Shown here in pieces: positions 1,974-56,803 of a DNA stretch of 64,000 bases (its first letter is position 1; the number at the start of each line of letters is the position of its first letter). The DNA comes from an uncultured Opitutales bacterium (GTDB lineage: Bacteria > Verrucomicrobiota > Verrucomicrobiia > Opitutales > T3Sed10-336): the NCBI GenBank assembly GCA_964645585.1, contig CAZYAN010000010.1, positions 3,677-67,676 of the forward strand, given 5' to 3'. The notes under the pieces were generated by a model. That model did no database searches. It had not been told where the DNA came from and saw only the letters and a list, made by a program, of their open reading frames with translations. Made by a program: the position numbers and the translations under genes.

Positions 1974-4900
1974 ATGAATCTGTTTACTGCCACCCATTCA
2001 CTTCGCCGGAGTCTCCCGGCGTATCCTGTGGTCGCGTTGCTCGTGCTTGCCATGATCGGCGCAGCGTCCAATCTCCGCGGCCAAGCCTGGGAGCTCTTTG
2101 AATCGTCGTCGGTGCCCGCTGTGTGGAGCGTCTCTGGAACCGGCGCAAGCATTCGGACCGATAACAGCCGTTCCTGGCAGGGAAATCGCTCCTTGGAATG
2201 GAGCTGGAGTCAGCCGTCCACCACCCTTACATGGACGATCGCGCCAGCGACCTCCGGCTCCGGCCACCGCGTCTTGTCACAATGGGTGCGACTCGAAACG
2301 CCGCTTCCCGATGCCCGTCTCAGAGTCGAGCTGCGCTCCACCAACAACAGCCTGCGGTATTTCGAGGTAAACCTCGATTTCACCGGCTGGCGCACGATGT
2401 TCGTTCCCTACAGCAGCATGGACGGCAGCGGGACAAACAACATCAATCGCGTCCGCTGGACACTGGTCGGATCACCGCCGCAATCCGGGAAGATCCATCT
2501 CGATCAGGTCATCGCGGGCCAACTGATGGATGTGCGCTTTCAATATGCCGACGCCCAGGTGCCTTTCGTCTGGGCGGAGCGCGTGAACAGCATGTGGGAA
2601 AACAAACCTCACTGGCATCGCGCCCGCCCCGCTCGCGTCGTTCCGACGGCCGCCGAACTCGCCGCCCTCGCCAAAATCCGTGTCGACTGGGACTCCCGTC
2701 TCGCCGGCACCGGAACCGTCACGACCAGCCAGGTCAATTCCTGGGAAACCCAGCTGAACGCCTACAACCTCCGGCGCGAAGGCGGCGTCGTCCGCGGCAA
2801 TCCCATCTACTACCGTCAATACCCGGAGTACGCGTACCCCTCCACCCTCGCCAATCAGATCGTCGGCGCCCAGGCGCCGAACGCCTTTCAGGATTTCACC
2901 ACGCTTATGTACAACATGGCCCGCGCATGGCACCGCACGACCAACACGACGCTGCGGTCGCGTCTGGCCGACATGATCGTGCTGATGTCGGAACACCTCC
3001 TCGACCAAGGCTGGGCCGGCGGGAGCAACCAGGGTTCCATTTTTCTCTACGGGTACCAAAGTCGCGAATACATGCGAGCGATGTATCTCGCCCGCCACAT
3101 CTACGCCCAGACCGGGATGCTCGACGAGATGCTGGAAGCGGCGCTTTGGTACGGCCAGGCCGGCTTCCTGCTCGACGGGCCGCGCGCGCCCAACATGGAT
3201 TTCTTCAATACCTTGCTCCAAGGTCAGATGCTCTCTCTCCTCATGGACCCGGACCCGGGCATGCAGACCGCATGGATGCGTCTCTTCATTGAAAACCTCA
3301 GCGACCAGGTCGCCAACCATACCCCGGGCGACCTCAACGGTTTCAAGCCGGACGGAACAACCTACCACCACAACGGCCATTATCCGGCCTACGGGATCGG
3401 CGCGATCTCCACGCTCGGCGGTGTCTTCGACGTGTTGCGGGGAACACCATTTGAACTGACGGATCCCGCGCGTATGTCGTTTCGCCAGGTCCTCCTTGCC
3501 GCCCGGCACTACGCCCACCCGTACGACTGGCCGATCGGACTCAGCGGCCGCCATCCTTTCAGCGGCACCATCGGCAACGCTCGATCCCCGATTCTTGCCC
3601 TCTCTCTCTACCCGGACCCTGTCCTTGGAAACGCTCCGGACCGCGAACTCGCCGGCGCCTATGTCCGGCTCTGGGGACAACCGGACGGCACGGCCGGCAC
3701 CGCCTACCAAAGCGCCGGCATCCAGGCCGAAACGGGGCACGGCTTCCACCCATTTCCGTTTGCCAACCACGCGGTCTACCGGTTCGACGACTGGATGGTC
3801 AGCCTTAAAGGCTACAGCCGCTACGTCTGGGCGTCCGAAATTTACGCGGCCGACAATCGCTACGGACGGTACCAGAGCAACGGCACAGCGGAAATTCTCT
3901 TTGGCTCAGGACGAACAGCGAGCGGCTTCCGTGAAAACGGCTGGGACTGGAACCGCCTCCCAGGCACAACCACCGTCCACCTTCCCATTGAGCTGCTCGA
4001 CAGCCCGCACAGCGGCACACTGATGCGCCGCTCCAATGAAACCTTCGCCGGCGGTGTTTCCGGCGAATCGGGCGGCGCTTTTGGATTTGTTCTCAACGAA
4101 GCGTACTACGGTCACCTCCTGACCGCCCGCAAATCCGCGTTTGCGGCCGACGGCATGCTGATCATGCTCGGCTCAGGCATCTCCTCGAATCATTCCTCGG
4201 CCCCGGTGGAAACCACGCTCTATCAGGTCGCGCTCACCGGCGGACGTCCGCCAATTTACCTGTCGACCTCGCCTGACACGCCCGTCTCGAACTTTCCTTG
4301 GACCTATTCGACTACGCCTTCCACCGCGTTCTGGACAGTCGACCCGGTCGGGAACGCTTTTTGGATGCCGCCCGGCCAGCATGTGCGGTTTTCTCGTGTA
4401 AATCAGGAATCGCGTCATAATAAAACGAGTGCGGTAACCAACGGCGACTTTGCCAGCGCCTGGATCGATCACGGCACGAAACCGGACAACGCCCGCTATG
4501 AATACGTTATTCTCCCCCAGCGCTCGGTCGCTCAGGTCGCCCAGTTCACGGCTGAAATGGCATCGGCCTCTCCCGCGTATGAAGTCCTCCGCCACGACAA
4601 CGGACTCCACGCGGTCCGCGTCGCGAACCCGAACCGCTATGGCTTTGCCATCTACGAGCCGAATGAATGGAGCGACCTGCCGCACCTGACTGAAGCCGAA
4701 ACGCCTTTCCTCCTCTGGATCGAAGAGGCAGGAAACCATCTGGTCGTTTTCGCGGCCAATCCCGACCTGAATTCGACACCGGAGGAGAATCTCGTCTCCC
4801 CAACCTCGTTCACCCTTCGCGGACTCTGGGAAGTCGCGGACACAAACAGCACGGGGATCCTCGCCTGGCACGACGCCGGTGACACCCGCTTTGTCATTCC

Positions 4901-6248
4901 AGCCCGGAACGGGGCAACGTACCGCCTCCACCTGATGCCGGCAGCCTCGCCGATTCCGGGTAGTCTGGTCGACATTCGTGACGAAATCGCCCCGCCCGCC
5001 AACTTCAGTGCCGCTGCCGCCTCACCGTTTATTCACTGGAACGTATCCAGTGGAGCGATACTCGGTTACGTGGTCGAGCGGCGGCGCCCCGGCGCCACCG
5101 AATTCGAGTTCCTCTCGATTGTCTCCAACGACGCGACACACTTCTTCGATCCGGAGCTGGCGGCCGGTGACTTCGCGCATTACCGCGTGCGCTGCTGGAC
5201 GGAAGCCGGTCCGGGCGCCGCGACGACGTCCATCCTCGTTCACAACGCGAGAAACAACGGCACGTTCTTCGATTTCCGTACGATCAGTGCGGTCAATGAT
5301 CTACAGGCACTCGGCTGGACCGCCTCCGGTCTCCAGTCGGCAAATGACTGGTATCTGGAACCGCGCGGCATGTTTCTCATCGACAATTCCACGAACAACG
5401 CGGCTTCCTTAGTGGTCCCGTTTGCTCACCGCGCCACCGGCCGCATCGAAGCGCGCATGGGGGTTGCCCGCACTTCGGGCTTCTACGCGAACCTCGAATT
5501 GATGGCAGGGTCCGAGTCGCTCGGATTGATCCAGCTCTCCAACCGCGAGAACGGATTTCTTCGCGGCCCAAGCGATGTCTCCTTCAGCGATGTCCGCTGG
5601 GATATCGAACAAGGAACGCTTCGCGACCTCGCGATCGAATGGCGCGAACTCCCCGGAACGGGTCAAATCGCAATCGTTCTCCGCTACACCGGCACAACCG
5701 ACGCGGCCAGCGCGCTCCACTATTGGCAAATTCCCAACACCGTCGCCAACCGTCCCGACCGACTTCGGCTCTCAGTCGGGTTTGGATCCGCCGTCAACCG
5801 CGGCATGGTTCTCCAAACGCTCGAGATCGCCGAAGACCAGCCGGCGGCGCCCGCGGAACTGTACGCGGCATGGACGAAGGCCTTTCTCGGTGAATATAAC
5901 GCGGATCCCGCGGCGGATGCCGATGGCGATGGTGTTCCCAACCTTTGGGAGTTCGCCTGGTCCCGCGGCGCCGCGGCTGAACACGTTCCCGCCCGATCCG
6001 ACCTGATCCCGCAAATGGAAACCGGCGAAGATGGACCGCGTTTTGTCTGGGAAATTCCAATACTGACAGACAGTGATCTCCGCCTTGAAACAACTGACCG
6101 GTTCGATAGCGAATGGACCGTCGTCTCCCACATTGAAACCCCGATAATCGGTCGTCCCGGCTGGACGCGCATCACCTCCCCGCCCGTCTCGGCAGCGGAT
6201 TCGTCCCGGTTTTTCCGCCTTGTCCTGGTCAGCGAGCTTAACCCGTAG
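1974..6248 (+). CDS. Giant secreted polysaccharide lyase, chondroitinase-ABC-like (PL8-type), with extra C-terminal modules
   Basis: 1424-aa ORF with a signal peptide (VVALLVLAMIGAASNLRGQA). The catalytic-block-like segments FKPDGTTYHHNGHYPAYGI and GWDWNRLPGTTT match my memory of chondroitinase ABC / PL8 lyases. C-terminal FN3-like and jelly-roll-like segments follow, then DADGDGVPNLWEFAW and a beta-sandwich ending RFFRLVL. Confidence 0.65.
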   Translation: MNLFTATHSLRRSLPAYPVVALLVLAMIGAASNLRGQAWELFESSSVPAVWSVSGTGASIRTDNSRSWQGNRSLEWSWSQPSTTLTWTIAPATSGSGHRVLSQWVRLETPLPDARLRVELRSTNNSLRYFEVNLDFTGWRTMFVPYSSMDGSGTNNINRVRWTLVGSPPQSGKIHLDQVIAGQLMDVRFQYADAQVPFVWAERVNSMWENKPHWHRARPARVVPTAAELAALAKIRVDWDSRLAGTGTVTTSQVNSWETQLNAYNLRREGGVVRGNPIYYRQYPEYAYPSTLANQIVGAQAPNAFQDFTTLMYNMARAWHRTTNTTLRSRLADMIVLMSEHLLDQGWAGGSNQGSIFLYGYQSREYMRAMYLARHIYAQTGMLDEMLEAALWYGQAGFLLDGPRAPNMDFFNTLLQGQMLSLLMDPDPGMQTAWMRLFIENLSDQVANHTPGDLNGFKPDGTTYHHNGHYPAYGIGAISTLGGVFDVLRGTPFELTDPARMSFRQVLLAARHYAHPYDWPIGLSGRHPFSGTIGNARSPILALSLYPDPVLGNAPDRELAGAYVRLWGQPDGTAGTAYQSAGIQAETGHGFHPFPFANHAVYRFDDWMVSLKGYSRYVWASEIYAADNRYGRYQSNGTAEILFGSGRTASGFRENGWDWNRLPGTTTVHLPIELLDSPHSGTLMRRSNETFAGGVSGESGGAFGFVLNEAYYGHLLTARKSAFAADGMLIMLGSGISSNHSSAPVETTLYQVALTGGRPPIYLSTSPDTPVSNFPWTYSTTPSTAFWTVDPVGNAFWMPPGQHVRFSRVNQESRHNKTSAVTNGDFASAWIDHGTKPDNARYEYVILPQRSVAQVAQFTAEMASASPAYEVLRHDNGLHAVRVANPNRYGFAIYEPNEWSDLPHLTEAETPFLLWIEEAGNHLVVFAANPDLNSTPEENLVSPTSFTLRGLWEVADTNSTGILAWHDAGDTRFVIPARNGATYRLHLMPAASPIPGSLVDIRDEIAPPANFSAAAASPFIHWNVSSGAILGYVVERRRPGATEFEFLSIVSNDATHFFDPELAAGDFAHYRVRCWTEAGPGAATTSILVHNARNNGTFFDFRTISAVNDLQALGWTASGLQSANDWYLEPRGMFLIDNSTNNAASLVVPFAHRATGRIEARMGVARTSGFYANLELMAGSESLGLIQLSNRENGFLRGPSDVSFSDVRWDIEQGTLRDLAIEWRELPGTGQIAIVLRYTGTTDAASALHYWQIPNTVANRPDRLRLSVGFGSAVNRGMVLQTLEIAEDQPAAPAELYAAWTKAFLGEYNADPAADADGDGVPNLWEFAWSRGAAAEHVPARSDLIPQMETGEDGPRFVWEIPILTDSDLRLETTDRFDSEWTVVSHIETPIIGRPGWTRITSPPVSAADSSRFFRLVLVSELNP

Positions 6249-6819: not shown

Positions 6820-7557
6820 ATGCCCAATAAAATGCCTCGATGCGATCTGGCGGAAACTCGCAGCTCGCGCGCATTCACCCTGATCGAACTCCTCACCGTT
6901 ATCGCCATTATCGGCATTCTCGCGGCGATCCTTATTCCGGTCGTCGGCGCGGTTCGCGACAGCGCGCGCGCATCGAAGTGCATTTCGAACCTGCGCCAGA
7001 TGAGGAACGGGATCGCTCTTTACGCGAACGACCATAATGGCGTCGCGCCGCCGCCAGCATTCTGGGGAAGCCGACCGGAGAACTTCCCGAGCAACGATCT
7101 CCGAACAACTTTCCATTATAGGATTTGGGAATACGTCGGCTATGAGAATCGCACATTCAGGCGGCCGGACAATACACAGCTCACCGAAAGTCGTACAGAG
7201 AATATATTTCATTGTCCGTCTACTGTTCAGAAACTCACTGTTGTACCCGGCGGAACGGCATCTATAGACGGTTACGCGTATGCGATGAACGAGCAGCCCA
7301 ACGTTATTTATAACAGGGACGTCACCGTCGGCCTGAAGAAAGACCGGCTGACCGCCCCTTCGCGAACCGTGGCCGTTCTGGAGCACTCATCGTGGAAGAC
7401 GACTCCGGCGAAATATTTCGAGAGCGGTCTTATCCCTCACAACGGCGGTGGAAACTTTCTTTTCTACGACGGCCACGTTCAGGCGATAAAATTCGAATCC
7501 GTCCCCAAAAACAGTTATCAGGATGACGGCCTTTATTTCTGGGCGGGCGGGCGTTAG
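6820..7557 (+). CDS. Prepilin-type N-terminal cleavage/methylation domain protein (pseudopilin, H-X9-DG / DUF1559-like)
   Basis: 245 aa. Short basic leader, then [25 protein letters not shown] (N-methylation motif with conserved Glu at +5). C-terminal [13 protein letters not shown] is an exact H-X9-DG motif. Confidence 0.85.
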
Positions 7558-7598: not shown

Positions 7599-8483
7599 AT
7601 GCTACAACGAATATCCTGCTGTTACCGTTACGCTCAAAAGTCATTGAAAATCGCTGGAATCGCGCTTTTCTCTTTCACTCTTCCCGAAGTTGCAAACGCC
7701 CAAACCGATCTTGTCGTGGACGATTTTCAATCCGGTTATCCCGGCCAAGCCGTCCACGGAGCCGACACCTATTACTCGTCGCCTGTCCCGCGCTGGTATT
7801 ACAGTTCCTCGCACGCGCTCGATGCTTCAGGCGCCTACATCGCGGCGGACGCTTCATCCGCGAATCAATACATGTACTTCAATGGGCAGGTCAATACCTG
7901 GTCTATCACGTGGGTTGACTGCGACAGCGCCAGTTACCTGACTCTGAACCCTGCAAAGCGATACAGGATTGAGTTCGACTTGCTCAATGTTACCGGCGCG
8001 GGAGAAACCAGTGCCCTGCTTTTGCATTATCTATTGAATGACCGATGGACGAATATGGGAGCGGTGGTGCAAACTGATCCCGCGGGCTACCGTTTGCAGC
8101 TTCATATATCGGGTGACAATACTGTCGGATATAAAATCATCCATAAAGGCGGCGGCCAATTTATCGACGTCCCCGGAGCCGCGGGCGAAGCCGAAGTCGC
8201 CCCGGCCTGCTCGGCTCGAGCGAAACCGAACCGGGCCGTCCCGTGCGAGTCGCTCTCGAGTTCTTTCAGAACGAGCAGAGCCTGTACATCGACGGCGTGG
8301 AGCAGTTCACCGTCGATATCGATCCCCTGCCGCAGAATATGCTTTTTGGCAACGGATTCTGGGTGCAGATCTGGTCCAGCGCCGGACAAGCTCGCGGGAT
8401 GGACAACATTTTACTCCAGGAACTGGAGGCTCCGGAGCCTGAACCCTGGACTCCTGTTGAACCGGGTGAGGTTTACTGGGTAA
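7599..8483 (+). CDS. Signal-peptide-bearing lectin-like N-terminal fragment, probably the 5' part of the 8243-11152 gene (frameshifted)
   Basis: ATG at 7599 (the ORF track uses TTG at 7572). Signal peptide KIAGIALFSFTLPEVANA|Q. The sequence looks protein-like up to ..IIHKGGGQFIDVPGAAGEA (about nt 8190). After that the frame-0 translation becomes S/R/A-rich low complexity, while another frame becomes protein-like. Confidence 0.5.
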   Translation: MLQRISCCYRYAQKSLKIAGIALFSFTLPEVANAQTDLVVDDFQSGYPGQAVHGADTYYSSPVPRWYYSSSHALDASGAYIAADASSANQYMYFNGQVNTWSITWVDCDSASYLTLNPAKRYRIEFDLLNVTGAGETSALLLHYLLNDRWTNMGAVVQTDPAGYRLQLHISGDNTVGYKIIHKGGGQFIDVPGAAGEAEVAPACSARAKPNRAVPCESLSSSFRTSRACTSTAWSSSPSISIPCRRICFLATDSGCRSGPAPDKLAGWTTFYSRNWRLRSLNPGLLLNRVRFTG

Positions 8484-11152
8484 ACACCACCACAGTTCGC
8501 ACCTCCGAATCGAATGGAGGGGACCCGCGAACGGTGGCCGAAGGCTACGGGCGAATCATCGGCGTTGCGGTCGACTCGGTAAACGAGACGGTCTACTGGA
8601 CAGATGCCGGCGACATTTTTCGCTCTGATCTTAGCGGTGCAAATGCGGCAAGGATCTATGACGGCGACGGTTCGACCCAGGCGATTGCGGTAGATCCGGT
8701 TCGCGGAAAAATCTATTGGACCGAATGGGCGACGGGGCTTTACAGCGCCGACCTCGACGGGCAGGGAGTCACCCCTTTGCTCGATTTGGACGACTATGGC
8801 CAGGCAACTGGCTCGGGCGCGGTCACAATCGATCCAGTCACCGGGCGAGTGTACTGGGCAGAAGTCATCGCCGGCACCGTGGTCCGCCTGGACGCGAACG
8901 GCGGCGGCGCCGCAACCGTAGCAACTCTTGGTGCCAACACCTACGGGCTCGCCGTCGATGGAGAGAGCGGCCGCCTCTATTATACTGTCTTTGGGGCGGA
9001 GGGATCGTTGAATTACTACGACCTCGTGTCCGGCGAAACTACCGAAGTTCTGTCCGGTCTCAAAGAACCGCTTGGCGTCGCGTTGACAGCAGCAAACAAC
9101 GGCATTTTCTGGGCCGAACGCACGGGTGGAAAAATCAGCCGGGCATTTCTCAATGAAAACGGAGAAATTGAAGGGTCCATCAACACGATCCGGATCGGGG
9201 AAATCAGCCCATTCGGTCTCGCCGTCACCTCGGACGCAACCGGCCCGGTTCCCCCGCCAGCAAAGCGTCGTCTCTTTGTGTATGACGGCTTTGAATACAA
9301 CGCACGCGATCTGGTCGGACAAGACGGCGGCCTCGGCTGGGCCGGGCCTTGGGTCGAATCGCAAGAGGTCAACGGACCCTATCCTTTCGCGCTGGCCGCA
9401 TCACCGGGTCTGACTTTCGGCGATCTGCAAGCAGCCGGCGGCAAAGCTGAAATCAGCAACGGTCGACGCGCTTTCCGCACAATCGACACCGCCGGAATCA
9501 ACCCCGAACAACTTGACACCAACGGCAATCTCGGTGTCCCGGGGACCAGCGTCTGGGCCAGCTTCGTCGTGGAAGGCCTGACTGCCTCGCCCACCGACGG
9601 GTTCTGGGGCATCTCCTTCTTCCGCGGCGATGCCGAAACGCTCTTCTTCGGAAAGAGCGCGACGACCGATAAGCTCCGTCTTTCCGGCCAAGGTCAACCG
9701 GCGCAGGAATTCATGGATTCTCCGCTGAGCCCGACCGATAAGCACTTCATCATCCTGCGATTCGACTTTGTCGACAACGGTAATGATGTGGTCACGCTGT
9801 TCGCCGATCTCGATCCAATGGCTCGAACACCGTCCGACGACGATGCCCGCGGGACCTTCTCAGCGGCTGACTTCAGTTTCAACCGCATCCGCCTGGCCAA
9901 CAACGGCGGCCCTGGCGGGACGTTCGACGAGATTCGCATCGGCGCGACTTGGGCCGATGTGACACCGGTGCCATTCCGCGGTCTTGTGAACGGAGACTTG
10001 GAAGATGAGCCCTTCACTCGCGGCTGGAGCGTCAATGTCGGCGCTAAGGAGCATCCCGGCATCGTTCCGGGATCCGGCAAAGCGGCGTTCGTTCCGAGCG
10101 GGGGCGCGACCGAAAATCCGATCCGCCTGATCCAATTCTTCCCGCAATGGATTGAATTGACAGGCGATCCGCTGCCGGCCAATCCGTCCCCTGTCGACCC
10201 GGTCACTGGCGGGCGCACGGCCGATCACTTCATTCCTACCGGACCGCAATGGCAGCTGGGCTTTCACGCCGCTGTCGGTGCTCCCGAGAATGGTGGAGAC
10301 CGCAGCTTGAACCTTCTGCTCGGCCATGCGCCGTCCGCTGCCTACAACGTGGCGAATCTGCCGGTCATCAACTTCCGGATTACGGGCGACGGCTCTGGAC
10401 AAGTCTACAACAACTCAAACCCGGCGTTCAGCACCGGCTGGCATGTTATCCTGCCCGCCGGAACCTTCGAGGCATCCGAGCATGCCGATGACGCCTTCAT
10501 CGACCCGAGCGTTTATTACCTGCAGTTCGATGGCGACTATTCCACGGAACAGCCTTCCTACACGGTCTCGGTTCGTCGAGCCGGCGAAGACGACTTCTTC
10601 GCCGTCAGCGATGCCGCCAGCTATTGGCAATACGAAGTACCGCCGGCCGGAAGCGGGATCACCATGGTCCACTTCCACGGGTACGTCCAGGCGCCGTACG
10701 TGATCGACGATATCCATCTGGTGACGATCGGAGAACCCACTGGCTACGCGGCTTGGGCAGAAAATCACTTCAACCCGTCAGAACTCGCCGATCCATCGAT
10801 TAGCGGACCCGACGCCGATGCGGACGGAGACGGCATTCCGAATCTGATCGAATATGCATTTGGCGGCGATCCGCGTAAGGCGAGCCGGTCGATTTTGCCT
10901 GTCACCGGCCCCATTGAAGTGGAAGGCGAAACCTACCTGACGATCACCTACACGCGTTCCAGCGCGGCGACCGACATCGCCTATCGGGCAGAAGCTTCCG
11001 GCGATCTCATCGCGTGGGGCGCCGGCCCGGTGGAAGTCGGGTCCAGCGATAACGGCGACGGCACAATTTCGGTCACCTATCGCGACGCCGAACCGATCCG
11101 CACCGCCGGCAGACGTTTCCTCCGCGTGCATATTTCGAATGCCGGTCAGTAG
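8243..11152 (+). CDS. Giant secreted protein with a six-bladed YWTD beta-propeller, jelly-roll domains and the shared C-terminal tail module
   Basis: 969-aa ORF (GTG 8243; this frame is open from 8147). It has no signal peptide of its own and starts mid-domain (VRVALEFFQNEQSLYIDGVEQF). Six YWTD-type blades are visible (EVYWVN, TVYWTD, KIYWTE, RVYWAE, RLYYTV, GIFWAE; nt ~8465-9232). The C-terminus reads YAAWAENHF..DADADGDGIPNLIEYAF.. and ends RRFLRVHI. Confidence 0.8.
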   Translation: MRVALEFFQNEQSLYIDGVEQFTVDIDPLPQNMLFGNGFWVQIWSSAGQARGMDNILLQELEAPEPEPWTPVEPGEVYWVNTTTVRTSESNGGDPRTVAEGYGRIIGVAVDSVNETVYWTDAGDIFRSDLSGANAARIYDGDGSTQAIAVDPVRGKIYWTEWATGLYSADLDGQGVTPLLDLDDYGQATGSGAVTIDPVTGRVYWAEVIAGTVVRLDANGGGAATVATLGANTYGLAVDGESGRLYYTVFGAEGSLNYYDLVSGETTEVLSGLKEPLGVALTAANNGIFWAERTGGKISRAFLNENGEIEGSINTIRIGEISPFGLAVTSDATGPVPPPAKRRLFVYDGFEYNARDLVGQDGGLGWAGPWVESQEVNGPYPFALAASPGLTFGDLQAAGGKAEISNGRRAFRTIDTAGINPEQLDTNGNLGVPGTSVWASFVVEGLTASPTDGFWGISFFRGDAETLFFGKSATTDKLRLSGQGQPAQEFMDSPLSPTDKHFIILRFDFVDNGNDVVTLFADLDPMARTPSDDDARGTFSAADFSFNRIRLANNGGPGGTFDEIRIGATWADVTPVPFRGLVNGDLEDEPFTRGWSVNVGAKEHPGIVPGSGKAAFVPSGGATENPIRLIQFFPQWIELTGDPLPANPSPVDPVTGGRTADHFIPTGPQWQLGFHAAVGAPENGGDRSLNLLLGHAPSAAYNVANLPVINFRITGDGSGQVYNNSNPAFSTGWHVILPAGTFEASEHADDAFIDPSVYYLQFDGDYSTEQPSYTVSVRRAGEDDFFAVSDAASYWQYEVPPAGSGITMVHFHGYVQAPYVIDDIHLVTIGEPTGYAAWAENHFNPSELADPSISGPDADADGDGIPNLIEYAFGGDPRKASRSILPVTGPIEVEGETYLTITYTRSSAATDIAYRAEASGDLIAWGAGPVEVGSSDNGDGTISVTYRDAEPIRTAGRRFLRVHISNAGQ

Positions 11153-18132: not shown

Positions 18133-20523
18133 ATGATGACTTTCCCGAAGCCGATCTTCCTGGCTGGCGCGGTCGCGGCAACCGCCTGTTGTTCGATTCA
18201 CGCGGAATTCCCCGCCCTTCGTCTCGAGCCGATCGCGATCGGACAATTCTCTTCCCCGGTTGCCATAACCCATGCGGGCGATGGATCGGGCCGTCTCTTT
18301 ATCGCGGACCAGCGCGGCCGGATTTATATCCTCCACGACGGTGCCGTCCTCCCGGAACCGTTTCTCGATATCGAGAACAAACTCGTCACGGAACGACCCG
18401 GCTTCGATGAGCGCGGTCTCCTCGGATTAGCCTTCCATCCCGAATACGCCACGAAAAGCGCGCCGGGCGAAGGACATTTTTATATATACTACAGCGCGCC
18501 GTCTCCCGATGCGCCCGGAACCGCATCAGATCCGGTTGATCATCGAAGCGTCATCGCGGAATTCCGGGTCTCGGCTGAGAACCCTAACCAGGCGGATCCG
18601 TCGAGCGAACGTGTTTTGCTCACCTTCAATCAGCCCCAGTTTAATCACAACGGCGGACAACTCGCATTCGGCCCCGACGACGGCCTTCTCTACATTTCCA
18701 CAGGCGACGGAGGCAGTGCCAATGACAACAACGCGGGCCACACAGGCGGTGACTCCTCCCAACCTTCCGGCGTACTGGGAAACGCGCAGGACCTGACCCG
18801 ACTTCTCGGAAAGGTCCTGCGCATCCAGCCGTTGGGCACGAACGGACCCGGCGGCCAGTATGGGATTCCTCCCGGCAATCCATTCGTCAATTCGCCCGGC
18901 GGAGAGCGCGAGGAAATCTTCGCGTACGGTCTCCGCAACCCGTGGCGTTTTTCTTTCGACAAGCCTCCCGGCGAACCGCAGCGCCTGTTTCTCGCCGACG
19001 TCGGGCAGGGCCGCTTCGAAGAAATTAATCTGATCATCCCCGGCGGAAACTACGGCTGGCGCGCATTTGAAGGTTTCTCGGATTTCGATCCGACGGCTCC
19101 GTCCAGCGGACCGTATGAGGAACCGATCGCATCCTATTCCCGAAACGGTCAATCCGGGGACAGCGGGCTGCCAGAGATCGGTATCAGCGTGACAGGCGGG
19201 TACGTCTATCGCGGTACAGCCATTCCCGAACTTCAAGGGAAATATATTTTCGGCGACTGGTCCACCAGCTTCGGGGCACCGAACGGAACCCTTCTTGGAC
19301 TCGAAGAATCAGCACCAGGCGTATTCGATCTATCGATACTTGAAATCGAAGGCGGTAATCCCATTGGGCGGTTTATTCCTTGCTTTGGTGTGGACGAACA
19401 GGGGGAAATCTACGTCGGCACAAAAATGTCTCTGGGTCCGTCGGCCCCTCATCCCGATACCGGCGAACCGGCCGGGCAGCTGTTCAAGATTGTCGCACAA
19501 GCGGAACCGGTCGAAATCACGCTCGTCCCGTCCCGCGACAACTCGATCTATTCCGACTTTCCCAATAACTCGAATGGCGCCGGCGACCTCTTTGCCGGAA
19601 GGATCCAGTCGGGCGACGGCGTTCGCCGCGCCCTGCTCCAGTTCGATCTCGATGAAGTTCCAGCTGGATCGCAAATAATCGACGCGACGCTTTCGCTAAC
19701 CGTCAACATGACAACGACAGGCAGCTTCGACTTCTCCCTCCACCGTCTGCTTCGCGACTGGGGTGAGGCCGGTTCTTTCGGAACAGGAACGGGAGGGCCC
19801 GCACAAACCGGCGATGCAACGTGGTCCAACGCATTTCATCCTGGCGACGCCTGGTCCGCGGCCGGCGGCGATTTCGTCTCCTCGGCGAGCGCAACCACGG
19901 CGGTAGGCGCGCTGGGACAATACCAGTGGACGTCGCCGCAGCTCGCTGATGATGTTCAACAGTGGCTCGACAATCCGGACCAGAATCACGGCTGGATCTT
20001 GCTCGGCAATGAAGCCACCCCCTCAGCCAAACGCATCCACTCGAGCGAAAGCGGCAACAGCGGCGCCCGGCCGGCGCTCACCATTCACTATTTGGCAACC
20101 AGTGCGTTGTCACGCAGGCAAATTTGGGAGCGGGAGCATTTTCAGATCGGACAATACATCGATCCCGAGGACGATGCCGACGGGGACGGGATTCCCGCAC
20201 TCCTGGAATACGCTTGGGATCGGAATCCCGCGATTTCCGATGCCGACCCGAACGATCTGGCGCTCGCGCTCGGTCCGCCGACTGCCACGATCCGTTTCCG
20301 ACGCGACCCGCGCGCGGCCGACCTGAACTATATTCTGGAGGTTTCATCCGACCTCCAAAATTGGAGCGCAATCGTCACCTCCTCAAGCGGCGAACCGCCG
20401 TCCAATCCCGCCTTTCTCAGCGAATCTCCGGACCCGGCCAATCCGGAGCTGCGCATCGTCGAAGCCGCCCTCCCCTTCGACCAGGATCGGCAATTCACCC
20501 GCCTGCGGGTGGAACGCCCATAA
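18133..20523 (+). CDS. Secreted PQQ-dependent sugar dehydrogenase-like beta-propeller (GSDH/sorbosone dehydrogenase family) fused to a DNRLRE-like jelly-roll and the shared C-terminal tail
   Basis: 796 aa with a signal peptide. GSDH motifs RGLLGLAFHP, HNGGQLAFGPDDGLLYISTGDGG and YGLRNPWRFSFD. These are followed by RALLQFDL ... LHRLLRDWGE, then DDADGDGIPALLEYAW, ending QFTRLRVERP. Confidence 0.8.
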   Translation: MMTFPKPIFLAGAVAATACCSIHAEFPALRLEPIAIGQFSSPVAITHAGDGSGRLFIADQRGRIYILHDGAVLPEPFLDIENKLVTERPGFDERGLLGLAFHPEYATKSAPGEGHFYIYYSAPSPDAPGTASDPVDHRSVIAEFRVSAENPNQADPSSERVLLTFNQPQFNHNGGQLAFGPDDGLLYISTGDGGSANDNNAGHTGGDSSQPSGVLGNAQDLTRLLGKVLRIQPLGTNGPGGQYGIPPGNPFVNSPGGEREEIFAYGLRNPWRFSFDKPPGEPQRLFLADVGQGRFEEINLIIPGGNYGWRAFEGFSDFDPTAPSSGPYEEPIASYSRNGQSGDSGLPEIGISVTGGYVYRGTAIPELQGKYIFGDWSTSFGAPNGTLLGLEESAPGVFDLSILEIEGGNPIGRFIPCFGVDEQGEIYVGTKMSLGPSAPHPDTGEPAGQLFKIVAQAEPVEITLVPSRDNSIYSDFPNNSNGAGDLFAGRIQSGDGVRRALLQFDLDEVPAGSQIIDATLSLTVNMTTTGSFDFSLHRLLRDWGEAGSFGTGTGGPAQTGDATWSNAFHPGDAWSAAGGDFVSSASATTAVGALGQYQWTSPQLADDVQQWLDNPDQNHGWILLGNEATPSAKRIHSSESGNSGARPALTIHYLATSALSRRQIWEREHFQIGQYIDPEDDADGDGIPALLEYAWDRNPAISDADPNDLALALGPPTATIRFRRDPRAADLNYILEVSSDLQNWSAIVTSSSGEPPSNPAFLSESPDPANPELRIVEAALPFDQDRQFTRLRVERP

Positions 20524-22009: not shown

Positions 22010-24055
22010 TCAATCCACTATCCCGCCTGTCGGCCCGGGACCCGCGTCCGTCATCGTCACCGGCGCGATCCGCCCGTCCGTCTGATAGCTAAGTCTCTCA
22101 ATCGCCACCGACCGCGAACCGCTATACGGTCCAAGCCCAGGCCGATTATTCCACCGGTGATAAAAGATATACCACTCGTCCGTTCCCGGCAGGCGCACGA
22201 TGGAGTGATGCCCTGGCCCCTTGTGGGTCGCGTCGCTGCCGAGAATCTTTCCCCGATACTGCCACGGTCCAGCCGGTGACGAAGCCGTCGCATAATGCAC
22301 CGAATAGGTATGGTCGTGCCAAGAACCATGACTGTACGATAGATAATAAGTCCCGTTCCTGAAATGCATGTAAGCGCCTTCCGTGAAACTCGGCGGCGTC
22401 GCCACCGAAATCTCCCGCGCAAACGAAACCAAGTCGTCATTCAGCTCGAACAACCGAAGCGTCGACCCTGCACTGCCGCCCGCATACAGCCAAACCTTTC
22501 CAGTCGCCGGGTCCTCGAAGACCGCTGCATCAATCGCCTCAAAACCGGGATCTCCCCCGTCCGCCAGCAGCGGTTGCCCGGAATCGACGAACGGCCCGTA
22601 CGGCGCGTCCGCAACCGCGACGCCAATGTGCGACGGCTTAGGACCAACCGAATAATACAGATAAAACCGCCCATCCTTCTCCAACACGCCCGGCGCCCAC
22701 GCGTGCGATGTGCGTCCTTCCCTCTCCGTTTCGATCCAAGGAACATCCGCGAGCCGCAGCACCGGACCGTGCATGCGCCACCGGACGAGATCCTCCGACG
22801 AAAAAACGATAAACCGCTGCGCCCCGCGGGTCGGATACACCCAGAACCGGCCGCCCCACCAGAGCACGTCCGGATCCGCGCCGTCAAAGATCGGATTGCC
22901 TGCCTCGCCCTGCACCCGCGCCGTATCGACGCGCGCGCGAAGAAACGAGGCTTCCCGATCTTTGAGCGCAATCGTACTGACAAGACGAACCCGTCCAGGT
23001 ACCTCGCCGGGGTGTTCGACCGAAAAAGCAACGGCCGCCCAATCGCGCAGGTTGGTCGAGGCTTCCAAGCCCAGATCCTCCCAATCCGCCGGCGGATTGG
23101 TATCGAGCGCGAGCACGACCGGCGTCCCTTCCGCGTCCACTCGCGGAACCAGCCTTGCCTCCACGCGCAAACTATCAGGACGGGTTGCCGGCGAAGCGAG
23201 AAACTCCTCCGGTTGGAGCACCCGGTCGGAAACGCGAACTTCATCGAGCGCCCCCGCAAAATACTGATTCGTCTCCCACCCGTCCGAGGCGGCACCCAGC
23301 CGCCAAGTGCCGCGTTCTCCAGAGCCGCCAGCTCCGTTGTAAAACGCTCCGTCGAGCGCTGCGGATCCCTCCTTTACAAACCCAGAACTGCCCGGTCCTT
23401 GCAGCCAGAGCACCAGCTCCGTCGCGGATCCAGTCGCCACCGCGCTGTACCATTGACCTTCCTCAAGCGGGGCCTGACTTGTGACCGTCCTCGGCGTCCC
23501 TGAGCCATCAACGACCCCGACTTCCAAACGTCCCGATTCTCCGCTCTTGCGGAACCAAATCCAGACCGGATGCAGCGAAAAAATGTTGCCGGTCTTGGAA
23601 AGGAGCACTTGGTCGCCATTTGACGGATACAAAAGAAACGACACCTCCACAGTCCACTCCTCAAGCGGCTGGTCATCGATCGGCTTCGGATCATTCTCCT
23701 CGGGACGATGCCAAGTGAACAGCGATCGCTCGGGTGTAAAACTCGCCGCCAACCGATTTACCTCGCCCGAACCAGGAAGGTAATCAAACGGCGTGTCGGT
23801 CATGTAAGCCGGCGCATGCACCGGAAAAAACGGCCGCAAATGATTTCCGTGCCCGGAATGGTCGATGACCGAATTGAAGGCCGCGCGGATGTCATCGCCC
23901 GCGAGCCCTTCCTCGAAACGCCAGTAGGCGATCGTCTCGCCGGTCCCAGTCCCCGTTCCAATCAATCCCGCAACCAAAGCGATAATCCACGGTGTTCGAA
24001 ACCCGTTTCTAGTCCCCATTTGCGCTACCGACAGCCGCCTTTGTCTGTTGTCCAT
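22010..24055 (-). CDS. Secreted LamG-domain + glycoside hydrolase family 43 protein
   Basis: GH43 motifs ADPDVLWWGGRFWVYPT, HAWAPGVLEKDGRFYLYYS and TEGAYMHFRNGTYYLSYS. N-terminal LamG-like region (IAYWRFEE ... LDEVRVSDRVL). Start set at ATG 24055 (alternative 24019), because the ORF-track start at 24202 overlaps the upstream gene. Confidence 0.8.
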   Translation of the reverse strand: MDNRQRRLSVAQMGTRNGFRTPWIIALVAGLIGTGTGTGETIAYWRFEEGLAGDDIRAAFNSVIDHSGHGNHLRPFFPVHAPAYMTDTPFDYLPGSGEVNRLAASFTPERSLFTWHRPEENDPKPIDDQPLEEWTVEVSFLLYPSNGDQVLLSKTGNIFSLHPVWIWFRKSGESGRLEVGVVDGSGTPRTVTSQAPLEEGQWYSAVATGSATELVLWLQGPGSSGFVKEGSAALDGAFYNGAGGSGERGTWRLGAASDGWETNQYFAGALDEVRVSDRVLQPEEFLASPATRPDSLRVEARLVPRVDAEGTPVVLALDTNPPADWEDLGLEASTNLRDWAAVAFSVEHPGEVPGRVRLVSTIALKDREASFLRARVDTARVQGEAGNPIFDGADPDVLWWGGRFWVYPTRGAQRFIVFSSEDLVRWRMHGPVLRLADVPWIETEREGRTSHAWAPGVLEKDGRFYLYYSVGPKPSHIGVAVADAPYGPFVDSGQPLLADGGDPGFEAIDAAVFEDPATGKVWLYAGGSAGSTLRLFELNDDLVSFAREISVATPPSFTEGAYMHFRNGTYYLSYSHGSWHDHTYSVHYATASSPAGPWQYRGKILGSDATHKGPGHHSIVRLPGTDEWYIFYHRWNNRPGLGPYSGSRSVAIERLSYQTDGRIAPVTMTDAGPGPTGGIVD

Positions 24056-26259: not shown

Positions 26260-29200
26260 TCACTCGATGCTTAAACGAAAGAACTGCCGGCTGACCTCCG
26301 TTGTGTCCACGGAATATGGGCTCGCCGCCCCGTCGACAACCGTCCACGGGCCCGTGACTTCAGGCGCGCTTTCAAGAATCGCTTCGGCACCTTCCCAATT
26401 GAGAATAACTCCGGCACCGTCCCGGGAGATCGCAAGGACCGGAAGAACCGCGGACTCGAAGATCTCGCTGTCGATCCAGGTTCCTCCCCAGAGTTCCCCT
26501 AAAAATCCGTTGCCGGATGAAAAGTCTGTCGCGACCGCCCCGCCGCCTTCATTAAATCCAAATCGCAGGTGCAGCCCGTCAGCAGGATTCAGCAGATCGT
26601 GCAGCGGCTCGAACATCGACTCGCTGATCTCCTGCTGGGTTTTCGCGACGTGCCATATCTGGAACTCATCGACAGCGCCGCGGAAGAATTGCGCTCCCAG
26701 CTGCGCCCACGGGTACGGATCAGCGCCAATAAACGACCGGCGCATCACCACGATCTCCGTCGTCGGCACAGTCAGAGACGACTTGAGTTCCCCGTTGAGG
26801 TACAGCAGAAGCTGATCGGCGTCTCGAACGAGGGCGATGTGAACCCATTCGCCGTATTCAAAATCCGAGGTCGAAACCGTATGAAGATCGCCACCTGAAA
26901 CGACGCGAATTCCAGCGGTGATGATGCCGTCGAGCTCGCGCATCTCGATCGTCCGGGTAAGCGACTCCTGATTGGTCATTCGGAAAAGCACCTGCTGCTC
27001 TTCCTGATCCAGTATCTTGTACCAGGCCGAGATGGTAAAATCGCCGAACGTTCCCCCGGCATGGCTAAAACTCACAAAGTCGTCAATCCCGTCGAATTCG
27101 AGCGCGAAGAACCGCTGGAGATTTCCAGGGAGAACACTGAAGCTCCATGCGACACTGTACGGCCCGCTTCCTTCCGAATCAAAATACTCGACCCGAGCAC
27201 GGTTGATTCCCGCCGGAAGATTGCCAGGCGTAAAATAAATGGTGGCGCCGTTTCCAGTCGCCGCCGTGATCGCCGAAACCTCGTCCTCATTGACGAACAG
27301 GCGCAGACTCAAAACGTCGAGCGCCACCGTGCCGTTCACAACCTCGGCCTCAATCGTCACGTTCCGATCCACGTTGCCTGAGTGATGAACTGGTGTGGTG
27401 GAGACCACCGTCGGCAGCGTTTCATCCACCGGAATAAACATAAAGAAATTGATCTGAATATCATTATTAAAATTGTTGGCGCTCACCGCGCGAAGCCGGA
27501 CAGTCTCTTCGCCGGAAAGCGCGACCCTGACCTCCTGATCGAGTCCGTCCGGGCCGGTCAGCCGTGTGAATTGGTAAACGCCGTTCCCTTCAGGACGGAA
27601 TTCGCCAAGGACCTCCGTTTGCTGATTGGGCTGGGTGGGATCGCTTGTGACGCGTTCAAGGAGAATCACCGGAGCTCCGGTTGCGGCCGCCCGCAGAAAC
27701 ACTTGATACTGTCCCTCCGGGAAATTCCGGGTGTAATTAAACCACTCACCGGTTTCTACCAGGTGCAGGTCGTAATCCGGAATCGTGACGCCGGCATTCA
27801 GGCTGGCTTCGTCATATTTCGGGCGAGGCGGCAGATCTCCGCTGAAAAATGTCCCGACAACATCGCACCAGCGATACATATTGGTTTCCAGCGTCGCTTT
27901 CGTCTCCGACTTGCTGAAAAAGTCAACACCGGGCTCGCCGACACGGTCGACATAGCCGGTCGCCTGATTGAAGTAGCTGCCGTTCGTGAAAGTCGAAGGA
28001 GTCGGTCGGTCAATATAGGATCCTCCGCCCGGCGTCCCCGATACAGCGCCAGAGTCACCATCGCACAGCATACCGGCCGCGAAGTTGTAATCTTCCGCCT
28101 CGATGACGACGACCGCGTCTTCGTTCAAGGTATCGAACGACCAATGATGCGTCGTCTGGCGCTCGTTATCGCGAGCGATGACCGTCACCGCGTAAAACTC
28201 GTTCGGTTCGAGCCCGTCGAAAAAGACTTCATACGCGGGCGACGAACCGGTGATGGTCAAACTTTGATGAGAAATAAGCTCTCCGTTCAGGTACAGTTCG
28301 ATGTCCTCCGTCGAAAGCGTATTGGGTTCTTCGGTACTTACCTGGAAGCGCAAACCATCCTCGGCAGGATAAAAGAAGGCGTCGTGCAGCGGGGTCAGGT
28401 TCGCAATCACCGGACCGCTCTCGGTCACAAACGCGTCGACTTCAACGAAGCGCGGCTGGCGGAGCAGCATCGCCCCTTCTTCCGTGAATTCACCGAGGTT
28501 GTCAAAACCGCGGGAAATAAACTTCAAGTAGCGAAAATCGCTGACGGCGCCGGCCGGAAACACGAGTCGGACGAGGTTATAGTTCCCCGTTCCGGTTCCG
28601 GTATCCGTCGCCGGTATGCCAGGAACCGGAGCGCCGGTGTAGGTCAACGGCGTCGCAAAACGCGATCCTTCGATCACCGTAAAATGAATTCCGTCGGTCG
28701 ACACGGCGAACTCGCCATCGTATCCGGTTCGCCACGGATCAGCGCCGGTTATCCAAATGTCAATACGGTCGAGGGAGCGGTGCTGTGCATTGTTCGGGTC
28801 GCCCAAATCCCAGACAATTTCGACGATCTCGTTGTCCGGCCCCGGGATGACATTCGTCGCGGGCGCCGTCGCACTCGATGCATCCGTCAGCGCCACAAGC
28901 GATCCCTCCACCGGAGCAAAGTTACCGCTGCCGATGATGCCATGAAGCGCATCGTCAGACGACATGTTCAATTCCACGTCATCGAGCGTGCCGGCCGCCA
29001 AGCTCCCGTCGAAGGTGTCGAACGTCCAGGCCACTTCCCCGCTCGTCGCGTTGTCGCTGGCGACCACGCGCACTTTGTACAGCCGATTCGATTGCAAGCC
29101 GCCATAAGAAACCTGATACGAGGGGGACGCGCCCGCAACTGTCAACTCTTCCGGCGGCACGAGAACGCCGTCGATGTACACTTCAATATCCTCGGCCGCG

Positions 29201-30033: not shown

Positions 30034-30093
30034 GGTTTTTGGAGGGTTCTGATTGGAGAGAAACAACCCGCGGACGCGAAACGAAGAAGGGCG

Positions 30094-56555: not shown

Positions 56556-56803
56556 GCAGACCGTTCCTCCTCCGCAATAATGGGACTGCTCGATGATGAA
56601 AAGCCATTCCAAAAACCGTGCCAGTCACCAATGGCGAGCGGGCATGCCTTTCCATTGGTCGGATTGAAAAACCCGCTTTCCCGCCACGCCGCCCCTGCCG
56701 GAACTTTCGCAATCATAAAACGATCCGCGCTTCACCAGCCCGGTCGATGATCGCGGTTTTTAATCTTTCATCCCTCCCGGTGATTCTGCCAGACTCCCGC
56801 GCC

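Follow-up and report, generated by a model that had tools for sequence, protein, structure and literature searches.

An unnamed C-terminal domain shared by varied secreted proteins of Verrucomicrobiota, possibly a calcium-stabilized docking or surface-retention module

Why do secreted proteins with unrelated cores, encoded on a single stretch of bacterial DNA, end in the same kind of tail? The question is raised by a 64-kb segment from an uncultured Opitutales bacterium (64,000 nucleotides, hereafter the window), in which an earlier note had pointed out similar C-terminal tails at 5856-6248, 10745-11152, and 20116-20523 and had proposed a sorting or anchoring role. Verrucomicrobiota play a large part in the breakdown of mucin and of sulfated and algal polysaccharides; little has been reported on how they deliver their many exo-enzymes to the cell surface and retain them there. 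We found the three tails at these coordinates, all on the plus strand. They belong to a PL8 lyase, a beta-propeller protein, and a PQQ sugar dehydrogenase (P1, P2, and P3; Table 1), each of which carries one homologous C-terminal module of about 135 residues.

The tails of P2 and P3 are 31.5% identical across 111 residues (48.5 bits, BLASTP), and BLASTP alignments of the P1 tail with either of them are limited to 17 to 39 residues around an acidic loop. A family HMM made from 108 database members, which include P0121 (identical to P2 itself) and possibly relatives of P3, scored the three tails at 42.8 to 170 bits. The match of P1, the lowest of the three, spans the full model, with an E value of 1.3e-12 within the window. 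The motif similarity thus survives alignment statistics, and profile matches far above chance bear out the proposal of one homologous module on unrelated cores. Translated in six frames, the window contains the loop motif D.DGDG[IVL].[NA]L.E[YF]A three times and no more, once in each of these tails. For the last-strand motif [RQS][RQS]F[FLT]R[LV] the count is four, once in each of the three proteins and once in a fourth, P4, with the stop codon following after 3 to 8 residues. The short BLASTP alignments of P1 and the frequency of DxDxDG motifs in TSP3-type proteins might suggest a chance or compositional resemblance, in which a short acidic motif and a common strand motif coincide with no real shared domain. 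This reading is already refuted: all three tails give full-length profile matches, most proteins retrieved in a search of representative sequences match the whole module (see below), high-confidence AlphaFold2 models give the P1 and P2 tails one common fold, and the loop and last-strand motifs are absent from the rest of the window.

Table 1. Coordinates of the proteins, tail modules, and motifs in the window
Feature	Position	Strand	Basis
P1, 1424-aa secreted polysaccharide lyase, PL8 + tail module	1974..6248	+	Pfam Lyase_N, Lyase_catalyt, Lyase_8
P1 tail module, divergent subtype (NLWEFAW ... SRFFRLV)	5841..6224	+	Family HMM 42.8 bits, model positions 4-139
P1 EF-hand-type 12-residue loop, DADGDGVPNLWE	5916..5951	+	Motif search
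P1 last-strand motif SRFFRL, stop 8 residues on	6204..6221	+	Motif search
Putative true N-terminal part of P2, other frame, signal peptide KSLKIAGIALFSFTLPEVANAQ	7599..8225	+	Inferred
P2, 969 aa as called, LDL-receptor class B / YWTD-type propeller repeats + tail module	8243..11152	+	Pfam
P2 tail module, canonical member	10721..11140	+	Family HMM 170 bits
P2 EF-hand-type loop, DADGDGIPNLIE	10817..10852	+	Motif search
P2 last-strand motif RRFLRV, stop 7 residues on	11111..11128	+	Motif search
P3, 796-aa secreted PQQ-type glucose/sorbosone dehydrogenase, DNRLRE/CBM96-like domain + tail module	18133..20523	+	Pfam, NCBIfam
P3 tail module	20098..20520	+	Family HMM 120 bits
P3 EF-hand-type loop, DADGDGIPALLE	20173..20208	+	Motif search
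P3 last-strand motif RQFTRL, stop 5 residues on	20488..20505	+	Motif search
Internal sandwich-only module relative, between LamG and GH43 domains of a 730-aa protein (22010-24202, minus strand)	22919..23155	-	hmmsearch, hhalign
P4, 1268-aa ORF as listed, LamG/Ig-like	26260..30066	-	Pfam, minus-strand translation
P4 60-aa C-terminal mini-domain (..ILNW..ILESAPEVTGPW..SPY..RQFFRLSIE)	26263..26454	-	Own family

AlphaFold2 predicts the P2 tail to be one compact domain (pLDDT 96, pTM 0.86), made of N-terminal helices, an EF-hand-type loop, and an Ig-like sandwich of about seven strands that includes a terminal RRFLRLxV strand. The P1 tail model (pLDDT 85) has helices and strands in the same order, and six or seven strands follow the helical part in the two tails. 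The succession of helix, acidic loop, and beta-sandwich, which had been proposed from the letters of the sequence, matches both models. A conserved helix motif, W-x3-(H/Y)-F, stands at the N terminus of the module, and the loop and its exiting helix have the consensus D-x-D-x-D-G-x-x-N-L-L-E-Y-A-x-G-x-D-P. Each tail has one DxDxDG loop and one exiting helix; in the P2 model, the loop DADGDGIPNLIE is followed by the exiting helix at module residues 38-44. The 12-residue loop, DxDxDGxxNxxE, fits the canonical EF-hand at positions 1, 3, 5, 6, 9, and 12. Among 258 instances, uncorrected for shared ancestry, position 12 is Glu in 210 of the 213 with Asp or Asn at positions 1, 3, and 5, and Lys or Arg in 39 of the 45 without them. 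Such a covariation would be expected if a basic side chain substitutes for a lost metal site, and the loop may bind Ca2+. Strongly conserved positions of the module are mostly hydrophobic core or loop residues, and R137 of the terminal basic strand is kept in 240 of the 258 instances. With a median net charge of -7.5, the module is acidic, and Ca2+ bridging would thus be required for it to bind anionic LPS directly.

The module is without a name in Pfam, NCBIfam, or the PDB. Consistent with the earlier statement that no named family covers the tail, Pfam and NCBIfam gave nothing significant for the three window tails at E ≤ 10, and 30 diverse tails yielded weak local matches only. Those to DUF3999 and to F5/8-type-C models were set aside as chance-level; among CBM-type models, F5_F8_type_C and NedA-like ones matched 2 of the 30 tails at E values of 0.03 to 0.05, likewise at chance level. 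No significant PDB relative was found by sequence or by Foldseek, whose top 50 listed matches were generic Ig-like chains (best E value 4e-3, TM ≤ 0.43), and a literature search found no description of the module. TSP3_bac, MtsD, and an EF-hand protein gave further weak local matches, in keeping with the predicted calcium loop. The loop segment D-x-D-x-D-G-x-x-(N/D)-x-x-E-x-x-x-G-x-(D/N)-P fits the TSP3 consensus by eye. The TSP3_bac model (PF18884) matched 2 of the 30 diverse tails weakly (E about 0.01) and none of the three window tails, and it figures in the precomputed annotation of some short homologues; TSP3-array proteins account for 21 of the top 149 from the tail profile search. TSP3 repeats form long tandem arrays of a short unit of about 20 residues, whereas the module has a single loop built into a 135-residue globular domain. 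In the same phylum, the Amuc_1099 family (NF042425), from the MUL2 pilus-like locus of Akkermansia, has a segment of about 30 residues, ADPDGDGxxNLLEYAxGxDP, that resembles module residues 21-57 or so (profile positions 122-158). However, with a family cut-off of 50 bits, this match scores 13 to 16 bits, and it covers just the loop and leaves out the sandwich. We therefore rejected the assignment of the module to that family. The Amuc_1099 gene itself is described in the literature merely as uncharacterized.

The search for further carriers that the earlier note had proposed was run with a profile of the three tails. It retrieved 10,806 cluster representatives at E ≤ 1e-3, of which 605 reached E ≤ 1e-10; a word-index database search with the P2 tail alone returned no relatives, whereas the full-scan profile search succeeded. 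The whole module is matched in 128 of the 149 top proteins of the representative search (150 listed, less P0094) and is present in full in 70 of 80 genome loci. These 70 comprise 68 labeled as Verrucomicrobiota lineages (including Kiritimatiellia), one Planctomycetaceae, and one unclassified, and in non-PVC loci the match is restricted to the loop. The module is thus essentially confined to Verrucomicrobiota, and widespread there. Among P3 orthologues, the C-terminal region matches the three-tail HMM in 117 of the 120 listed, mostly a few residues from the end; Luteolibacter luteus and Luteolibacter sp. Populi are among the species with such an orthologue. A single unnamed domain ends a large and varied set of Verrucomicrobiota secreted enzymes and adhesin-like proteins, and its sequence clusters number over 10,000. 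At the least, a Pfam or NCBIfam model would be warranted for it, as the tails are at present unannotated. The domain marks out a candidate surface or secreted proteome straight from sequence, is usable as bait for a receptor or machinery, and could be a display tag for proteins on Verrucomicrobiota.

The module forms the C-terminal end in 108 of the 128 top carriers and in 83 of the 92 ORFs of the genome loci (84-90%), usually with 0 to 8 residues left before the stop codon. Tandem modules, in two to five copies, were found in 27 of about 150 top proteins (approximately 20% of carriers), with every motif preserved in the internal copies, the loop and the RRFLRL strand included. Internal or N-terminal copies occur in 9 of the 92 ORFs (approximately 10%), some of them ahead of a sulfatase. 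Carriers also recur within loci: 17 of the 70 loci hold more than one, there are 22 carrier ORFs beyond the first per locus in 1.1 Mb of loci, and a genome probably encodes dozens.

P4 had been described as a fourth carrier that keeps only the terminal sandwich, at 26260-26448. The last-strand motif is there, and the rest of this claim fared less well: the plus strand reads as nonsense in this interval, which is the C terminus of the minus-strand gene, and P4 ends in a mini-domain of a separate family rather than in the full module. Its tail was undetected by both tail HMMs (E > 5) and by BLASTP against the window tails, and as a single sequence it matched the module profile with an hhalign probability of 10.7%; we thus rejected P4 as a member of the module family. 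The 60-residue family itself occurs at 33 metagenome loci, with the stop codon directly at its end in nearly all, and its HMM gave no match in the Verrucomicrobiota carrier loci. In profile-profile comparison, it matched the sandwich half of the module with a probability of 88.9% (E 2.4e-6). As this one supportive result stands beside failed HMM and BLASTP searches, the idea that P4 keeps only the sandwich amounts to plausible remote homology.

A second sandwich-only relative, internal to a GH43 protein of the window (Table 1), was detected by hmmsearch (E 1.2e-4 within the window) and hhalign (probability 81%, E 1.2e-5). By joining LamG and GH43 domains, this variant behaves as expected of a passive structural domain, i.e., a Ca2+-stabilized folding or solubility cap or spacer, spread by domain shuffling and devoid of any targeting or binding role. 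Ig-like spacers are common in large bacterial exoproteins, and the predominance of core and loop residues among the conserved positions would fit such a part as well. Nevertheless, we hold this explanation to be improbable, because a spacer has no reason to come last in some 85-90% of carriers, and because the phylum-wide conservation of the terminal basic strand and of the exiting helix would be left unexplained.

The passengers represent 55 Pfam families across 50 carriers. The module is attached to PL8, GH92, sulfatases, CBM6/35-bearing proteins, and LamG proteins; RCC1, CotH, and the adhesin-like LRR, cadherin, PATR, and He_PIG domains are found as well. The first group brings to mind a carbohydrate-binding module, a Ca2+-dependent glycan-binding beta-sandwich that would target enzymes to their polysaccharide substrates. 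A sandwich with a predicted calcium site would suit this role, CBMs typically vary in position and form tandem arrays, and carriers cluster in polysaccharide-utilization regions, with three in 20 kb in the window and the multicarrier loci mentioned above. However, many passengers are not CAZymes (PQQ dehydrogenase, LRR, cadherin, PATR, RCC1, CotH), the occurrence of the same conserved module on enzymes with unrelated substrates speaks against substrate targeting, the bias toward the C terminus is stronger than usual, and the matches to CBM models are at chance level. Glycan binding is thus a possible role of the module, albeit a rather unlikely one.

The position of the module at the end of exported proteins raises the alternative of an export signal. 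Of the 80 carriers with an initial Met and 120 or more residues ahead of the module, at least 50 look signal-peptide positive by a crude heuristic. The expectation that all carriers have a signal peptide is supported to that extent, and the negative remainder are mostly fragments. No C-terminal sequence past the module that might be an alternative anchor was found in 50 carriers, nor was a transmembrane segment, a lipid-attachment motif, or a basic cluster after the module, and no cleavage motif is recognizable in the tail. The ends of the window tails (..RLVLVSELNP in P1, ..RVHISNAGQ in P2, and ..RLRVERP in P3) have no hydrophobic stretch. Unlike PEP-CTERM, LPXTG, and GlyGly-CTERM signals, the tails do not combine a signature motif with a transmembrane segment and a basic cluster, and the NCBIfam models of short sorting signals did not match them.

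Folded sorting domains offer a closer comparison. The T9SS CTD is described as a conserved C-terminal beta-sandwich that serves as an outer-membrane export signal and is cleaved by PorU (PMC4804311). Like the module, the T9SS CTD of Bacteroidota (Por_Secre_tail, TIGR04183/PF18962) is a folded Ig-like beta-sandwich of about 80 to 140 residues at the extreme C terminus. Both lack a transmembrane segment and occur on many unrelated Sec-exported enzymes and adhesins, many per genome, with genes unlinked to any machinery. The module differs by its additional helical and EF-hand-loop part and by its phylum, and it is found in two to five tandem copies and sometimes internally, whereas the T9SS CTD is single and always C-terminal. 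T9SS CTD models (TIGR04183/PF18962 and TIGR04131) matched neither the window tails at E ≤ 10 nor the 30 diverse tails at E ≤ 0.1, no T9SS CTD structure was among the top 50 listed Foldseek PDB matches, and no T9SS genes were seen in the 64-kb window. T9SS is generally taken to be limited to the Fibrobacteres-Chlorobi-Bacteroidetes group, and Verrucomicrobiota are not known to use it. Thus, at database scale, the module shows the terminal bias on dissimilar exoproteins that the earlier note had taken as the hallmark of a sorting domain, and many of its carriers look signal-peptide positive, but the likeness to the T9SS CTD, PEP-CTERM, and LPXTG systems was not borne out.

The module might still be an outer-membrane export or sorting signal in its own right, an analogue of the T9SS CTD whose sandwich would be recognized by a putative Verrucomicrobial translocon or sortase and then removed or covalently attached. 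Its location just ahead of the stop codon in most carriers, the very diverse passengers with Sec signal peptides, the Ig-like fold, the apparently high copy number, and the remotely related P4-type tail that ends at the stop in nearly all its loci argue in this direction. Conversely, internal tandem copies retain every supposedly terminal motif, about one-tenth of copies are internal or N-terminal, e.g., ahead of sulfatases, and a sandwich-only relative is internal to a GH43 protein. The absence of T9SS CTD matches in the searches above, the presumed restriction of T9SS to another group, and the lack of a visible conserved cleavage motif also speak against it, and we consider this explanation unlikely. 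As had been noted, no sorter-like gene was seen within the window. All-against-all clustering of 717 ORFs from the 80 carrier loci revealed no recurrent neighbor family across 1.1 Mb, besides carriers and sulfatases (6 loci), and no cohesin-like or other recurrent partner gene near carriers. Sorters are normally unlinked to their substrates, and therefore a missing neighbor gene is not evidence against an export signal. In a more speculative version, which we view as doubtful, the module would be the address label of an undescribed Verrucomicrobiota-specific pathway that delivers proteins, once exported by Sec and folded, onto or across the outer membrane, with the P4-type 60-residue tail as a minimal version. 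If true, this pathway would be the functional counterpart of the T9SS CTD system.

Anchoring or docking fits the data better than a cleaved sorting signal. Tandem copies, and copies N-terminal to sulfatases, are the mark of repeats that bind or anchor rather than of terminal signals. The architecture leads us to favor, tentatively, a calcium-stabilized docking or surface-retention domain that is retained on the mature protein, with an export signal and a glycan-binding module as its serious rivals. The carrier would be exported via Sec by its N-terminal signal peptide, and outside the cytoplasm the loop would bind Ca2+ and the module would fold. The folded module would then remain on the mature protein and bind non-covalently one shared ligand, which may be a cell-envelope component or a partner or scaffold protein. 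Many different enzymes and adhesin-like proteins could thereby be held at the cell surface, and tandem copies would add avidity. The mode of action would be that of a dockerin or an SLH-type anchoring module rather than that of a cleaved sorting peptide.

Dockerins (types I to III; PF00404), which mediate non-covalent docking in cellulosomes, are the closest functional analogy for such a docking domain. In them, too, a helix ("F-hand") follows an EF-hand-like Ca2+ loop, and they are mostly C-terminal on diverse secreted glycan-degrading enzymes. In contrast with the one loop and Ig-like domain of the module, they consist of two duplicated loop-helix segments and have no beta-sandwich, and PF00404 matched neither the window tails nor the 30 diverse tails. 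SLH, choline-binding, and LysM-type modules are similarly added to many unrelated exoproteins, in one to several tandem copies and at either protein end, and they stay on the mature protein. However, they are unrelated to the module in sequence and fold and bind Gram-positive wall polymers or peptidoglycan, whereas the hosts of the module are diderm. Several observations count against docking: the extreme C-terminal bias exceeds that of most binding modules and fits an export signal, the module is acidic and no recurrent partner gene lies near its carriers, and many carriers are CAZymes in polysaccharide-utilization regions, which fits a carbohydrate-binding role too.

N_methyl/DUF1559 genes are located directly upstream of P2 and P4. 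Pseudopilin linkage as a general rule was rejected, as just 2 of 92 carriers elsewhere have such genes upstream. P2 lacks a signal peptide in its called form, which probably represents the 3′ portion of a gene with a start at 7599 and a frameshift; no homologue joining the two parts was found among the sequences compared. P1, P3, and P4 have signal peptides. The N terminus of P1, MNLFTATHSLRRSLPAYPVVALLVLAMIGAASNLRGQA, is signal-peptide-like, and P4, listed with a TTG start at 30066, probably begins at the ATG at 30033 (MIYASTARLLILVLFAVQLSTAAFLRAQ), which would give it a signal peptide.

Three proteins, P1, P2 and P3, end in a common module of about 135 residues, in which predicted N-terminal helices precede an EF-hand-type loop and a predicted Ig-like sandwich ending in RRFLRLxV. 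Translation of the + strand yielded the three tail sequences quoted in the earlier note, which had proposed a shared C-terminal tail on four large secreted proteins as a possible sorting or anchoring signal. The interval that it gave for the fourth, P4, reads as nonsense on the + strand and is in reality the C terminus of a minus-strand gene. The cores of the four proteins are unrelated, as had been claimed. Judged from the sequences, the similarity among the tails of P1, P2 and P3 is above chance; the alignment between those of P2 and P3 spans 111 residues, and an HMM of 108 members from the database gives full-length scores of 170 bits for P2, 120 for P3 and 43 for P1. A six-frame translation of the 64 kb contains exactly three copies of the loop motif and four of the last-strand motif, all at the C termini of these four proteins.

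Coordinates of the four proteins, sandwich-type segments and adjacent prepilin-type genes
Feature	Coordinates	Strand	Description	Basis
P1	1974-6248	+	PL8 polysaccharide lyase	Pfam/NCBIfam
P2	8243-11152	+	LDL-receptor class B (propeller) repeats	Pfam/NCBIfam
P3	18133-20523	+	PQQ-type glucose/sorbosone dehydrogenase and DNRLRE/CBM96-like domain	Pfam/NCBIfam
P4	26260-30066	-	LamG/Ig-like protein	Pfam/NCBIfam, translation
P4 60-residue tail	26263-26454	-	second unnamed C-terminal family, loci L081-L113	
Internal sandwich-only relative	22919-23155	-	inside GH43/LamG gene 22010-24202	HMM search, hhalign probability 81%
Prepilin-type N-terminal methylation gene, also DUF1559/SBP_bac_10	6820-7557	+	directly upstream of P2	
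Prepilin-type N-terminal methylation gene	30094-30783	-	directly upstream of P4	

A signal peptide is obvious in P1, P3 and P4. P2 as called (GTG at 8243) has none; an upstream ORF in another frame (ATG at 7599, + strand) has a clear one and runs into the frame of P2, the two overlapping at 8147-8483 (+). A frameshift near 8150-8240, either a sequencing error or the sign of a pseudogene, probably splits the P2 gene. The database copy of P2, P0121, has the identical 969-residue call.

That the tail belongs to no named family held up: no Pfam or NCBIfam model covers the module in the window tails or in 30 diverse tails. The former gave nothing meaningful even at E<=10, and the latter just weak local matches to TSP3_bac, MtsD, Amuc_1099_fam, DUF3999 and F5/8-type-C. 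A profile search of PDB sequences returned an EF-hand as its sole match, at 14 bits. In the acidic motif, a canonical EF-hand-type loop of 12 residues (DADGDGIPNLIE), D occupies positions 1, 3 and 5, G position 6, N position 9 and E position 12, and an exiting helix comes next. Among 258 instances, counted irrespective of shared ancestry, 213 retain D/N at positions 1, 3 and 5, and 210 of these have E at position 12; of the 45 in which at least one of the three is lost, 39 have K or R there. Such a swap would be anticipated where a basic side chain stands in for a lost metal ion, and the coupling thus supports a real Ca2+ site in the module. About 15% of modules lack at least one of the three acidic residues, nearly always with K/R at position 12 (e.g., ADPGGYGVPNLLRYAFG and TPDGDGIPNLLKYALAL), and appear to form a calcium-independent subtype. 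The module is acidic overall (median net charge, -7.5). The uncharacterized Amuc_1099 protein (NCBIfam NF042425), from the pilus-like MUL2 locus of Akkermansia, has an ADPDGDGxxNLLEYAxGxDP segment in common with module residues ~21-57. The module scores 13 to 16 bits against NF042425, far under the cut-off, and the likeness may be no more than a calcium-loop motif shared within the phylum.

When 1.84 billion cluster representatives were searched with a profile of the three tails, 10,806 proteins matched at E<=1e-3, of which 605 also passed E<=1e-10. The full module is present in 128 of the top 149 matches, 108 of which end within 10 residues of it; the other 21 are TSP3-array proteins matched by the loop only, many times per protein. 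Orthologues of P3 form a large family among Verrucomicrobiales, including Luteolibacter and Prosthecobacter, with a tail HMM match in the C-terminal region of 117 of the 120 orthologues listed. One genome per GTDB species was also scanned, with P2 as the confirming query. This gave at least 80 loci, 70 of them with the full module; among the matches listed, these 70 comprise 68 from Verrucomicrobiota, one from Planctomycetaceae and one unclassified, a limitation to the phylum that may be overstated. The Verrucomicrobiota loci are labeled Verrucomicrobiales, Akkermansiaceae, Opitutales, Chthoniobacterales and Kiritimatiellia, and in the few non-PVC loci among the matches listed nothing more than the loop was matched. 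The loci hold 92 carrier ORFs, 83 of which end within 12 residues of the module, and 17 loci have two to four carriers each.

The passengers are diverse, with 55 different Pfam families on 50 full-length carriers, including LamG, GSDH, beta-propellers, He_PIG, LRR, cadherin, PATR, GH92, CBM6/35 and CotH. Of 80 carriers with an M start and 120 or more residues ahead of the module, at least 50 have a signal-peptide-like N terminus by a crude hydrophobicity heuristic, the remainder being mostly fragments. Strong terminal bias, promiscuous passengers and signal peptides are what a sorting domain predicts, and to this extent the earlier proposal stands. In contrast, two to five tandem modules are found in 27 of the top proteins, the internal copies keeping both the loop and the RRFLRL strand, with the next module starting within a few residues. 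Moreover, about 10% of copies are non-terminal, two of them ahead of sulfatase domains, and a sandwich-only relative lies inside the GH43/LamG protein. All three observations speak against a signal that is cleaved and strictly terminal. An export signal for putative machinery, one of the two main rivals to the reading favored below, is unlikely. Neither a transmembrane segment nor a lipid-attachment or conserved cleavage motif was seen in the tail. In loci L048 and L080, the latter the sole Planctomycetaceae locus with the full module among the matches listed, the module is N-terminal to the sulfatase-like domain, inverting the usual order.

What the module does we can only infer. By analogy, modules that dock or anchor proteins non-covalently, dockerins and SLH domains among them, likewise occur in one to several mostly terminal copies with retained motifs. 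Copy number, variable position and retained motifs are also CBM-like; however, one conserved module is found on enzymes for unrelated substrates, and we consider glycan binding, the other main rival, improbable. Because these enzymes, and adhesin-like proteins without another visible anchor, share one conserved module, we tentatively favor a Ca2+-stabilized docking or retention module, which would dock or retain the exported passenger. A passive structural role seems very unlikely.

In architecture and context the T9SS CTD is nearest to the module, and for the Ca2+ loop-helix the dockerin and the TSP3 repeat, but the T9SS CTD and dockerin models did not match the module, and TSP3_bac gave no more than the weak local matches noted above. 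The T9SS CTD is single-copy and strictly terminal, and the module is neither; it has one loop where dockerins have a duplicated pair, and it is not an array of short repeats like TSP3. A full-text literature search returned no description of it. We regard the module as an unnamed, phylum-wide C-terminal accessory domain in which an EF-hand-type loop is fused to an Ig-like sandwich. It allows a large candidate surface or secreted proteome of an ecologically important phylum to be defined at the sequence level, and can act as bait in the search for a partner.

The P4 tail was matched by neither module HMM, nor by BLASTP or single-sequence profile comparison. Its last 60 residues represent a separate family (..LxW..L(E/Q)xAPEVTGPW..SPY..RxF(Y/F)R(L/V), then a stop codon) without a Pfam or NCBIfam match. 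The family was found in 33 metagenome loci, a set biased by the search pattern APEVTGPW, with varied upstream sequences, and almost always forms the last residues of the ORF. Its HMM had no match in the Verrucomicrobiota loci of module carriers. Since profile-profile comparison of the family with the module's sandwich half gave a probability of 88.9% (E 2.4e-6), the claim of a P4 tail reduced to the terminal sandwich is a reasonable remote-homology hypothesis rather than a demonstrated membership of the module. The sandwich relative in the GH43/LamG protein, absent from the earlier list, lies between the LamG and GH43 domains and has no calcium loop (..LGLEASTNLRDWAAV..ASFLRARVDTA).

Clustering of 717 ORFs (1.1 Mb) around carriers revealed no recurrent neighbor family, and no sortase-, exosortase- or T9SS-like gene was found within the 64 kb, in agreement with the reported lack of a cognate sorting enzyme. 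The pilin-carrier pair also occurs in loci L021 and L025, where the pilin-like ORF ends 4 nt before the carrier ORF. A pseudopilin-like gene as a general partner was rejected, this arrangement being present in just 2 of 92 carriers elsewhere. An ECF sigma factor gene followed by a 263-residue ORF (together 16609-17939, +) lies directly upstream of P3; the ORF, without a Pfam match, is possibly an anti-sigma factor. A 974-residue ORF (56618-59542, +) had no Pfam match at E<=1e-4. The region 1974-37940 looks like a glycosaminoglycan-type polysaccharide utilization cluster; among its secreted enzymes the tail is found on some, not all, and the heparinase II/III protein gave no module match. Its enzymes include a PL8 lyase, heparinase II/III, a GH88 unsaturated glucuronyl hydrolase and GH43, accompanied by a GntR regulator, a DHDPS-family protein, an SDR, an enolase-superfamily protein and sodium:solute symporters.
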